From IMG/VR virus record IMGVR_UViG_2737471818_000007: a DNA stretch of 47,226 bases, one strand, 5' to 3'. Positions within the stretch are counted from its first letter, which is position 1. Each line of letters opens with the position of its first letter. The DNA comes from a virus. Lineage: Duplodnaviria; Heunggongvirae; Uroviricota; Caudoviricetes. Below are positions 34,577 to 36,857 of this stretch, in pieces. Position numbers and translations under genes: made by a program. The notes beneath the pieces are model-generated. The model was given only the letters and a program-made list of their open reading frames with translations, did not search any database and was not told the DNA's origin.

Positions 34577-34732
34577 TTACTCCTCAGATTCGTAAGCTGT
34601 GAAGACAGCGACCTCCGTCTGGCCGGTTCGGATTCGTACCTCGCAGAGGTCTTTCCTCGTTACCAGTGCCGTCACTATGACGGTTAAACAGATGACGATC
34701 AGGACGATTAACATCGCCTTTTGCTGCTTCAT
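34577..34732 (-). CDS. hok: Hok/Gef-family type I toxin
   Basis: 51-aa ORF MKQQKAMLIVLIVICLTVIVTALVTRKDLCEVRIRTGQTEVAVFTAYESEE, classic Hok; below the ORF-track size cutoff. Confidence 0.85.
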   Translation of the reverse strand: MKQQKAMLIVLIVICLTVIVTALVTRKDLCEVRIRTGQTEVAVFTAYESEE

Positions 34733-34986: not shown

Positions 34987-35250
34987 TCACAGGTGCGAGG
35001 AAAATATATAGCGCCCTCCATCAAGCATAACGAAATACATTTTCCATTCATCGCCATTCCTCAATTTAATACGAAGACTTTCCCCGCAAGTGTATTTATT
35101 AAACAACTGTTCCGATGTGCTAGTAAGAGGTATTTTTACCGTTATTACAACTACTGCCCCACCATTTAACTCTCGAAGTTCAGCATCCGCATCCACAAAA
35201 GATGAATAAATGTTATGATCTGGGTAATCAACAATTAACTGCATATTCAC
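34987..35250 (-). CDS. hypothetical protein
   Basis: 87-aa ORF; no family recognised. Confidence 0.4.
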   Translation of the reverse strand: MNMQLIVDYPDHNIYSSFVDADAELRELNGGAVVVITVKIPLTSTSEQLFNKYTCGESLRIKLRNGDEWKMYFVMLDGGRYIFSSHL

Positions 35251-35381: not shown

Positions 35382-35897
35382 TCACCGTAAAACATCCTCC
35401 ACGCTTATCAGTCCGTTTCGCTTCAGGTAGTCCATCGCCATCTCCGGTAATTTGCAGTCTGGATTAGCTTTTTTCAGTTGACTGACCAGTAGTTTAACCC
35501 ACATTGTTAATTCGCTAACCTGATTGCCGGAAGCTGGTGGGTTGTCGGCTTTACCCAGAATGACAGCACTGCAGGCCTCTTTGAGTACCCAATCAACAGC
35601 ATCTTTCCATGCTCCTGTTTCGACTGGTGGATTCTCACGCTTTACCTGTTCATAAAAGCGCACGGCTTTAACCAGTCCTTCTGATGTCACCGGAACTGGC
35701 GGGGCAGTGAATAAGGCCTGAATCTCATAGCTCTGCCTGTCGTTGCAATCCTCTTTTGTCGGTACATATTTCCAGTCACCAATCCACATCTTCTCCTGAA
35801 AGTCCGTAACGCCTTTTTTCACATAGCGATATCGCCATGCAACTGGTTTTGCCTGCCCTACCGTTTCATGCCCTTCCTGATAATTAATCTCGCTCAT
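35382..35897 (-). CDS. hypothetical phage protein
   Basis: 171-aa ORF; its ATG overlaps the stop of the upstream 56-aa ORF (ATGA). Confidence 0.55.
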   Translation of the reverse strand: MSEINYQEGHETVGQAKPVAWRYRYVKKGVTDFQEKMWIGDWKYVPTKEDCNDRQSYEIQALFTAPPVPVTSEGLVKAVRFYEQVKRENPPVETGAWKDAVDWVLKEACSAVILGKADNPPASGNQVSELTMWVKLLVSQLKKANPDCKLPEMAMDYLKRNGLISVEDVLR

Positions 35898-36064
35898 TCA
35901 TCGCCCCACTCATCACAATATGCTTCGACAGGTGTTTTTCCTGCTTCGTAGTCATCACGCCAGGCTTCAGCTGTACTTCCTCCACGTAACTCTGCATAAT
36001 CCATTAACAGTTCATGCCATTCTTCAAAACTGACGTTGTATTTAGTTGAACCAAAATCAGCCAT
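35894..36064 (-). CDS. small acidic protein (56 aa, below the ORF-track cutoff)
   Basis: MADFGSTKYNVSFEEWHELLMDYAELRGGSTAEAWRDDYEAGKTPVEAYCDEWGDE; strong RBS GAGGAGGAAGG; start overlaps the stop of the 60-aa ORF and stop overlaps the start of the 171-aa ORF. Confidence 0.55.
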   Translation of the reverse strand: MADFGSTKYNVSFEEWHELLMDYAELRGGSTAEAWRDDYEAGKTPVEAYCDEWGDE

Positions 36065-36239
36065 TTTGTCCTTCCTCCTCGTCTTTTATTTCGTGATATG
36101 AGTAATTGCAGTAGTTAAAGAAAATTTCTTTTGCTTCGTCATGAATTTCATCAGGTGTTGCGTCATCGTCCACTTCGAATACATCCTCAAAATCCCCACC
36201 AGCTATTCCCGTTTCAATAATTATTTTGAACTTTCGCAT
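36057..36239 (-). CDS. small highly acidic protein (60 aa)
   Basis: MRKFKIIIETGIAGGDFEDVFEVDDDATPDEIHDEAKEIFFNYCNYSYHEIKDEEEGQNG; translationally coupled to the next ORF. Confidence 0.5.
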   Translation of the reverse strand: MRKFKIIIETGIAGGDFEDVFEVDDDATPDEIHDEAKEIFFNYCNYSYHEIKDEEEGQNG

Positions 36240-36383
36240 TTCACTACCGCCCTTTCGGGTGGCCTCCTGATGTTCTGAGGGTGCAGAAATCCCTCCGGTT
36301 AAGGATTAAATTTTATTTACAGAACTGAATTTAATTATTCAGATATACGTATCTGTAACCTTACTAACCTACTCACTGGATGC

Positions 36384-36857
36384 CTATTTCATAAAAATAA
36401 TCCAGTGGGTTTTATCGTTTTTTCCTGTTCGTTGACCGATAACAGGTTTTCTGTCGGTCAGCACCAATATCTGGCGAACAGGTATTTGCGTTTCATTCCA
36501 TTTAAAAATCAGAACGCCGGATGGACGCAACACACGAAAGGCTGCTTTAAATCCCTGCCGCAAATCATCACGCCAGGTATCTTTATTCAGCCGTCCATAT
36601 TTCTTTCCCATCCAGGCGTTATCACCAACACGCTCAAGATGCGGAGGGTCGAATATAACCATCGAAAAAGATGCGTCTGCAAATGGTAGTGCACGAAAAT
36701 CAGCTATCAGATCAGGACTGATAATCAGGCATCGTCCATCACACAATGTGTGCTCTTCCTTTCTGATATCGCTAAATATCGCCCGGTCGTCATTCTTATC
36801 GAACCAGAACATACGGCTGCCACAGCACATATCAAGAATGGTTACCGGTGTACTCAC
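36384..36857 (-). CDS. small methyltransferase-like protein (phage Dam-like, DPPH motif)
   Basis: 157-aa ORF with motif-I-like ILDMCCGS and motif-IV-like VIFDPPH; nin-region position. Confidence 0.55.
   Translation of the reverse strand: MSTPVTILDMCCGSRMFWFDKNDDRAIFSDIRKEEHTLCDGRCLIISPDLIADFRALPFADASFSMVIFDPPHLERVGDNAWMGKKYGRLNKDTWRDDLRQGFKAAFRVLRPSGVLIFKWNETQIPVRQILVLTDRKPVIGQRTGKNDKTHWIIFMK

Follow-up and report, generated by a model that had tools for sequence, protein, structure and literature searches.

Two small acidic early genes of a Qin/Rac-like lambdoid prophage as candidate host- or defence-inhibiting proteins

Among described phage proteins, those that come closest to the genes considered here are the DNA mimics Ocr and ArdA, the small RNA polymerase (RNAP)-binding or RNAP-modelled proteins T7 Gp2 and lambda Orf55, and the small, obscure early proteins of the lambda exo-xis region (Orf60a, Orf61, Orf63, Ea8.5 and Ea22). 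We analysed two adjacent open reading frames (ORFs) of 60 and 56 amino acids (aa), termed ORF60 and ORF56, together with the 171-aa ORF171 that follows them, in a 47,226-nucleotide (nt) stretch of viral DNA (IMG/VR record IMGVR_UViG_2737471818_000007), referred to below as the window, which is a Qin/Rac-like lambdoid prophage of E. coli. ORF60 and ORF56 resemble Ocr and ArdA in their early expression, strong negative charge and small size, but no similarity to either was detected and both are at most half the size of Ocr. Gp2 and Orf55 are small beta-beta-alpha-beta proteins without any significant sequence or profile relation to ORF60. With the exo-xis proteins the pair shares an equivalent niche in Shiga toxin (Stx) phages and a downstream gene whose product has an Ea22-type N-terminus; however, comparison found no homology to Orf55 or to any exo-xis ORF, and the cassette of the window lies in a rightward, nin-like operon, not between exo and xis.

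Both genes proved to be real and selected; they are early, portable and encode acidic proteins, and their two families are independent of each other. We propose, tentatively and with somewhat less than even confidence, that they encode two independent small protein-binding inhibitors, which would act early in lytic growth in host takeover or counter-defence.

ORF60 and ORF56 are genuine genes under selection

Since ORFs this short arise readily by chance (63 ORFs of at least 30 aa were counted within 5.5 kb), independent evidence was required before either could be regarded as a gene. Both matched curated or clustered protein families, as detailed below. Among related E. coli viral loci the ORF60-ORF56 pair was intact in 80 of 83, and pairwise Nei-Gojobori estimates over distinct alleles gave ratios of nonsynonymous to synonymous substitution (dN/dS) of 0.067 for ORF60 (33 distinct alleles) and 0.079 for ORF56 (32 distinct alleles). 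Both are thus genuine protein-coding genes under selection, and the conservation in related prophages that a first-pass annotation of the window had put forward as a check on its own reading was borne out.

The same annotation had described ORFs of 60, 56 and 171 aa joined by two stop/start overlaps, the second consisting of ATGA. All three ORFs were recovered at the positions it gave, and both overlaps, the first of them 8 nt long, were seen as described, in the minus-strand sequence, the strand having been left unstated (Table 1). Read on that strand, ORF60 terminates in CAA AAT GGC TGA and ORF56 begins ATG GCT GAT, while ORF56 in turn terminates in GAT GAA TGA and ORF171 begins ATG AGC. An identical 8-nt overlap was present in 73 of the 80 pair-carrying loci, and the ATGA overlap at the end of ORF56 was retained in nearly all loci despite variation in the body of the downstream gene. 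A strong Shine-Dalgarno sequence, GAGGAGGAAGG (approximately 36068-36078), stands directly upstream of the ORF56 ATG and within the codons of the acidic C-terminal tail of ORF60, where GAC GAG GAG GAA GGA (region 36065-36085) serves at once as tail and as Shine-Dalgarno sequence. ORF171 is without a good Shine-Dalgarno sequence and depends on the ATGA junction. Judged from the geometry of the overlaps alone, translation of the three genes would be coupled.

Upstream of ORF60, the leader that travels with the cassette was aligned over 37 variants, with a mean column identity of 90%. Its AGGAGG lies 23 nt ahead of the ORF60 start codon, and between the two is a GNRA-capped hairpin, CCACCC GAAA GGGCGG (approximately 36247-36262), which if looped out would leave an effective spacing of 7 nt. 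ORF60 may have a hairpin-bridged ribosome-binding site, an arrangement that recalls the one described for T4 gene 38. Base pairs were mostly kept among the 37 variants, but covariation did not exceed that of shuffled alignments, the z-score of the leader fold was -1.1, and no Rfam covariance model matched at E<=1 across 35800-36500; the structured leader was left as an unproven idea.

Two independent acidic families and a portable cassette

ORF60 (MRKFKIIIETGIAGGDFEDVFEVDDDATPDEIHDEAKEIFFNYCNYSYHEIKDEEEGQNG) was assigned to the Pfam family DUF7167 (PF23768; E=2.6e-14, 53.5 bits against a gathering cut-off of 24.4), residues 2-53 aligning with positions 1-60 of the 60-position profile, i.e. with the full-length model, and to phrog_1997 (E=1.4e-30). 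It is a plain member of both, with no differences, and its copy in E. coli 1303 is 100% identical and named 'DUF7167 family protein' in RefSeq. The invariant core of the family was M1 R2 I8 E9 T10 E22 V23 A27 T28 E31 I32 A36 F40 C44. An AlphaFold2 model (confidence score pLDDT 79) placed beta strands at residues 2-9, 16-23 and 45-51 and a helix at 29-40, in the order beta-beta-alpha-beta, followed by an acidic C-terminal helix. Sensitive searches found DUF7167 in phages and prophages of Klebsiella, Citrobacter, Yersinia, Serratia and Pseudomonas, and also in virulent Enterococcus Herelleviridae (genomes of about 140 kb) at about 40% identity; in a Guernseyvirinae phage its gene overlaps the start of a PD-(D/E)XK exonuclease gene. 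No ORF56-like neighbour accompanied the DUF7167 genes of Klebsiella, Citrobacter, Yersinia, Pseudomonas and Enterococcus phages.

ORF56 (MADFGSTKYNVSFEEWHELLMDYAELRGGSTAEAWRDDYEAGKTPVEAYCDEWGDE) matched no Pfam model. Its match to phrog_519 (E=4.8e-21) covered only positions 76-137, a C-terminal stretch of 62 positions, of the 143-position profile; this family of 261 phage proteins includes CBA120 orf183 and Det7 gp16. It carries the F-E-E-W ... A-W-R-x-D-Y-x-x-G-K-T-P-x-x-A motif of that family together with its conserved acidity, and W16, W35, Y39 and G42 were invariant or nearly so in 33 diverse members. The form in the window is a 2-residue-deletion allele of a commoner 58-aa E. coli protein, and was modelled by AlphaFold2 as a three-helix bundle (pLDDT 70). 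An exhaustive search returned 74 representative clusters at 50% identity, and 197 phage records carried the family, mainly those of virulent Ackermannviridae (Kuttervirus, Taipeivirus), where it counts as a conserved 'hypothetical' protein; the distant relatives had no DUF7167 neighbour. CBA120 orf183 (L119 3474-3668) stands just downstream of the major capsid gene cluster, unlike the lambdoid early-operon contexts. The two families are thus independent, and they co-occur only in the cassette of E. coli and Shigella, to which the close family of the cassette is restricted. Records PP818812.1 (Actinobacillus phage vB_Apl-pPE4) and L083, a scaffold of a Collinsella sp. metagenome-assembled genome, showed more than 90% DNA identity to the E. 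coli lambdoid cassette. In both, contamination or a wrongly assigned host is likely, and the Collinsella match is almost certainly contamination.

Both proteins had been called strongly acidic in the first-pass annotation, and calculation agreed: ORF60 has 18 D/E against 5 K/R (isoelectric point 4.09, net charge -13) and ORF56 has 15 D/E against 4 K/R (4.08, -11). The acidic runs it quoted, DDDATPDE and DEEEGQNG, do exist, although both fall in ORF60 and not one in each protein. Acidity is a trait of both families and not of this allele alone, since DUF7167 members carried net charges of -7 to -14, with 15 of 60 columns at least 70% D/E, and 32 of the 33 sampled ORF56-family members were acidic, with a family mean of -9.3.

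The genomic context was read from a RefSeq-annotated copy in E. coli 1303, which is 99.8% identical over 1.1 kb around the trio. In the direction of transcription it encodes Cro/CI-type regulators, an O-like replication protein, a DnaC-like ATPase, DUF1627, DUF977 (Ren-like), an orphan class I S-adenosylmethionine (SAM) methyltransferase, the DUF7167 protein, two hypothetical proteins, HokD, DUF968, RusA, Q and the lysis genes, and this gene order assigns the trio to a nin-like position in the delayed-early rightward operon. In the Stx phage ArgO145 the same pair (gp15, gp14) is found in the leftward early operon beside Ead/Ea22-like genes; the cassette of ORF60 and ORF56 thus moves among early-operon positions. 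The portable unit is made up of the leader of roughly 100 nt together with ORF60, ORF56 and the opening codons of the third gene. Its upstream neighbours, tallied over 76 loci, fell into nine or more unrelated families: 43 loci had a zinc-ribbon/coiled-coil protein, 9 had a methyltransferase, 6 had a 101-aa protein that seems DUF4406-like from a reading of its sequence, and the remainder had Ea22-like, DUF977, DUF1627 and other proteins. A constant functional neighbour, whether methyltransferase or exonuclease, was rejected, the neighbours being too variable.

Counted on the two small genes alone at a coverage of at least 80%, the pair was present in 1,748 of 5,426 complete E. coli genomes, in up to four copies each, almost always on the chromosome and rarely on plasmids, and RefSeq already annotates it in these genomes. 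As it stands, this is an ordinary pair of accessory genes, known in kind, whose families are catalogued and which is annotated in thousands of genomes.

Candidate functions of the pair

In the proposed mechanism, both genes would be expressed from the delayed-early rightward operon of the prophage and translated one after the other: ORF60 would use its own Shine-Dalgarno sequence and ORF56 the one within the ORF60 tail codons, and ribosomes would reinitiate at ATGA on the third gene. ORF60 would fold by itself into a beta-beta-alpha-beta domain that ends in an acidic tail, and ORF56, also by itself, into a Trp-rich three-helix bundle. Each protein would act by stoichiometric binding, its conserved negative surface engaging the basic face with which a host or defence protein contacts nucleic acid, a mode of binding that the family-wide acidity fits, and the two would act separately with no obligate heterodimer. 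For phrog_519 the literature search turned up a single paper, in which the family is a machine-learning anti-CRISPR candidate in Kuttervirus genomes, by prediction only (PMC9409062). DUF7167 and phrog_1997 were mentioned in no paper found, and a search of the literature on accessory-gene screens, the exo-xis region, lambdoid small acidic proteins and the protein accessions returned nothing experimental on ORF60 or ORF56.

Several observations weigh against this proposal. Small acidic proteins are common in phage early regions, those of lambda including Ea10, orf28 and Ea8.5, and charge alone is thus weak evidence; the doubling of the ORF60 tail codons as the ORF56 Shine-Dalgarno sequence means that some conservation of the tail could reflect constraint at the nucleotide level. 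Neither protein showed significant similarity in sequence or fold to characterised inhibitors or DNA mimics. All fold matches were weak, generic ferredoxin/RAM-like or three-helix scaffolds ranking equal, and fold searches with ORF56, as well as those of ORF60 against viral models, yielded nothing informative. A likeness of ORF60 to T7 Gp2 can be seen by eye (KKF..VE(S/T)..FEV..A(E/T)..DEA), but hhalign returned probabilities of 0.5% and 0.3%, i.e. no significant profile relationship, and Gp2 was absent from a profile search of PDB sequences. Homology to Gp2 was therefore rejected, and the likeness, weak and without sequence support, was kept as a weak fold lead. The arginines that Gp2 requires for RNAP binding seem not to be conserved, and it is very doubtful that ORF60 is a host RNAP modulator of the Gp2 or lambda Orf55 kind whose negative strip would bind the beta-prime jaw or downstream DNA channel.

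The first-pass annotation had suggested anti-defence factors on the pattern of Ocr and ArdA. In general terms this stands, the proteins being early, acidic, conserved and portable, but its DNA-mimic form is unsupported, given that Ocr, ArdA, Arn, Ugi, p56 and Gp5.9 matched neither protein in sequence or in fold among the PDB hits. Such a function, in which dimers of one protein or of both would display carboxylates arrayed like phosphates, thereby blocking type I restriction-modification, BREX or similar DNA-binding systems, could be envisaged from the extreme and conserved acidity and the early context, and DNA mimics as small as 52-56 aa do exist, e.g. T7 Gp5.9 and phi29 p56. The adjoining orphan DNA methyltransferase is itself an anti-restriction-type function, and Dam precedes DUF7167 in a P22-like prophage; however, a methyltransferase stood upstream in only the 9 of 76 loci mentioned above, and we regard classical DNA mimicry as improbable. 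Roles internal to the phage, as accessory factors or lysis-lysogeny tuners like lambda Orf60a, Orf61, Orf63 and Ea22 that act on phage recombination, replication or developmental proteins, could also be envisaged. In Klebsiella phage VLCpiS11a the DUF7167 gene and the start of a PD-(D/E)XK exonuclease gene overlap; in the P22-like prophage its neighbours are ERF, SSB, Dam and theta-like genes, and elsewhere it is surrounded by Ea22-like and DUF551 genes. The ArgO145 pair occupies the region equivalent to exo-xis, whose genes are reported to affect lysogenisation and induction (PMC3824215, PMC7093339). Against such roles stand the lack of sequence similarity to any lambda exo-xis ORF, the highly variable neighbours, which leave no constant phage partner, and the presence of the families in strictly virulent Ackermannviridae and Herelleviridae, which argues against a function specific to lysogeny; phage-internal factors are thus unlikely, if still worth considering. 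An obligate heterodimer, with the overlap ensuring 1:1 synthesis, would account for the conserved 8-nt overlap and for co-inheritance in 80 of the 83 E. coli loci. Overlapping starts and stops are, however, the default packing in these operons, and each family was found without the other outside E. coli and Shigella. The pairing is thus a local arrangement of the cassette and not an obligate two-component system; obligate pairing was rejected, and a heterodimer of this kind is highly improbable.

ORF60 and ORF56 are accordingly plausible candidates, as yet unproven, for inhibitors of the host or of defence systems. Inhibition of a defence system or of a core host enzyme, if true of either protein, would assign a function to a Pfam DUF and a PHROG of 261 members. 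Phage-therapy design and catalogues of defence and counter-defence would both benefit, the carriers being about one third of sequenced E. coli, Stx-converting phages and virulent phages of the therapeutic type (Kuttervirus, and the Enterococcus Herelleviridae genus Kochikohdavirus). A bolder form of the proposal, which we consider unlikely, is that DUF7167 and phrog_519 are two unrecognised inhibitor families, each directed against a host or defence protein that binds nucleic acid and is highly conserved, for example DUF7167 as a Gp2-like blocker of RNAP or of a nuclease and the ORF56 family as an anti-CRISPR or anti-restriction mimic. If true, this would explain why the families are conserved across a range that runs from temperate prophages of enterobacteria to virulent Ackermannviridae and to Herelleviridae of Gram-positive hosts, and the E. 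coli cassette would be a portable two-inhibitor counter-defence module in a third of E. coli genomes.

Coordinates and neighbouring genes

Table 1. Features of the ORF60-ORF56 locus and its surroundings in the window.
Feature	Position	Strand	Basis or remark
ORF60 (60 aa, DUF7167 family)	36057..36239	minus	sequence, Pfam, PHROG
ORF56 (56 aa, phrog_519)	35894..36064	minus	sequence, PHROG
ORF171 (171 aa, phrog_660)	35382..35897	minus	sequence, PHROG
ORF60/ORF56 8-nt stop/start overlap, ATGGCTGA	36057..36064	minus	sequence
ORF56/third-gene stop/start overlap, ATGA	35894..35897	minus	sequence
Conserved leader of about 100 nt travelling with the cassette	36240..36342	minus	cross-phage homology ends near 36342
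Orphan DNA methyltransferase (PADLOC oMTase / MTase_II, phrog_954)	36384-36857	minus	144-nt gap upstream of cassette
87-aa ORF downstream of ORF171	34987-35250	minus	no Pfam or PHROG match
51-aa Hok-family type I toxin ORF, MKQQKAMLIVLIVICLTVIVTALVTRKDLCEVRIRTGQTEVAVFTAYESEE	34577-34732	minus	hokD in RefSeq, near-identical E. coli 1303 prophage

ORF171 matched phrog_660 (E=2e-72) and no Pfam family, and its N-terminus, MSEINYQ, is common to Ead/Ea22-like proteins. In the related loci (L003-L084) the third gene always started MSE(I/V)(N/D)YQ, its length ranged from 70 to 315 aa and its body was mosaic; a constant start with a mosaic body suggests a recombination junction just within the 5' end of the gene (35850-35897). 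Beyond its first codons ORF171 is outside the conserved unit. In E. coli 1303 (L001 7779-8975) an ISEc20 element (IS110-like) is found just downstream of the ORF171 homologue, and the window is without it.

The methyltransferase was the only gene matched by a PADLOC model, with no hits for ORF60, ORF56 or ORF171. The P22-like prophage (L125/L126) in which Dam precedes the DUF7167 gene has a gap of about 216 nt between the two. A Sok-like antisense RNA would be expected near hokD, and at the position matching the 87-aa ORF E. coli 1303 has a hypothetical coding sequence of 258 nt.
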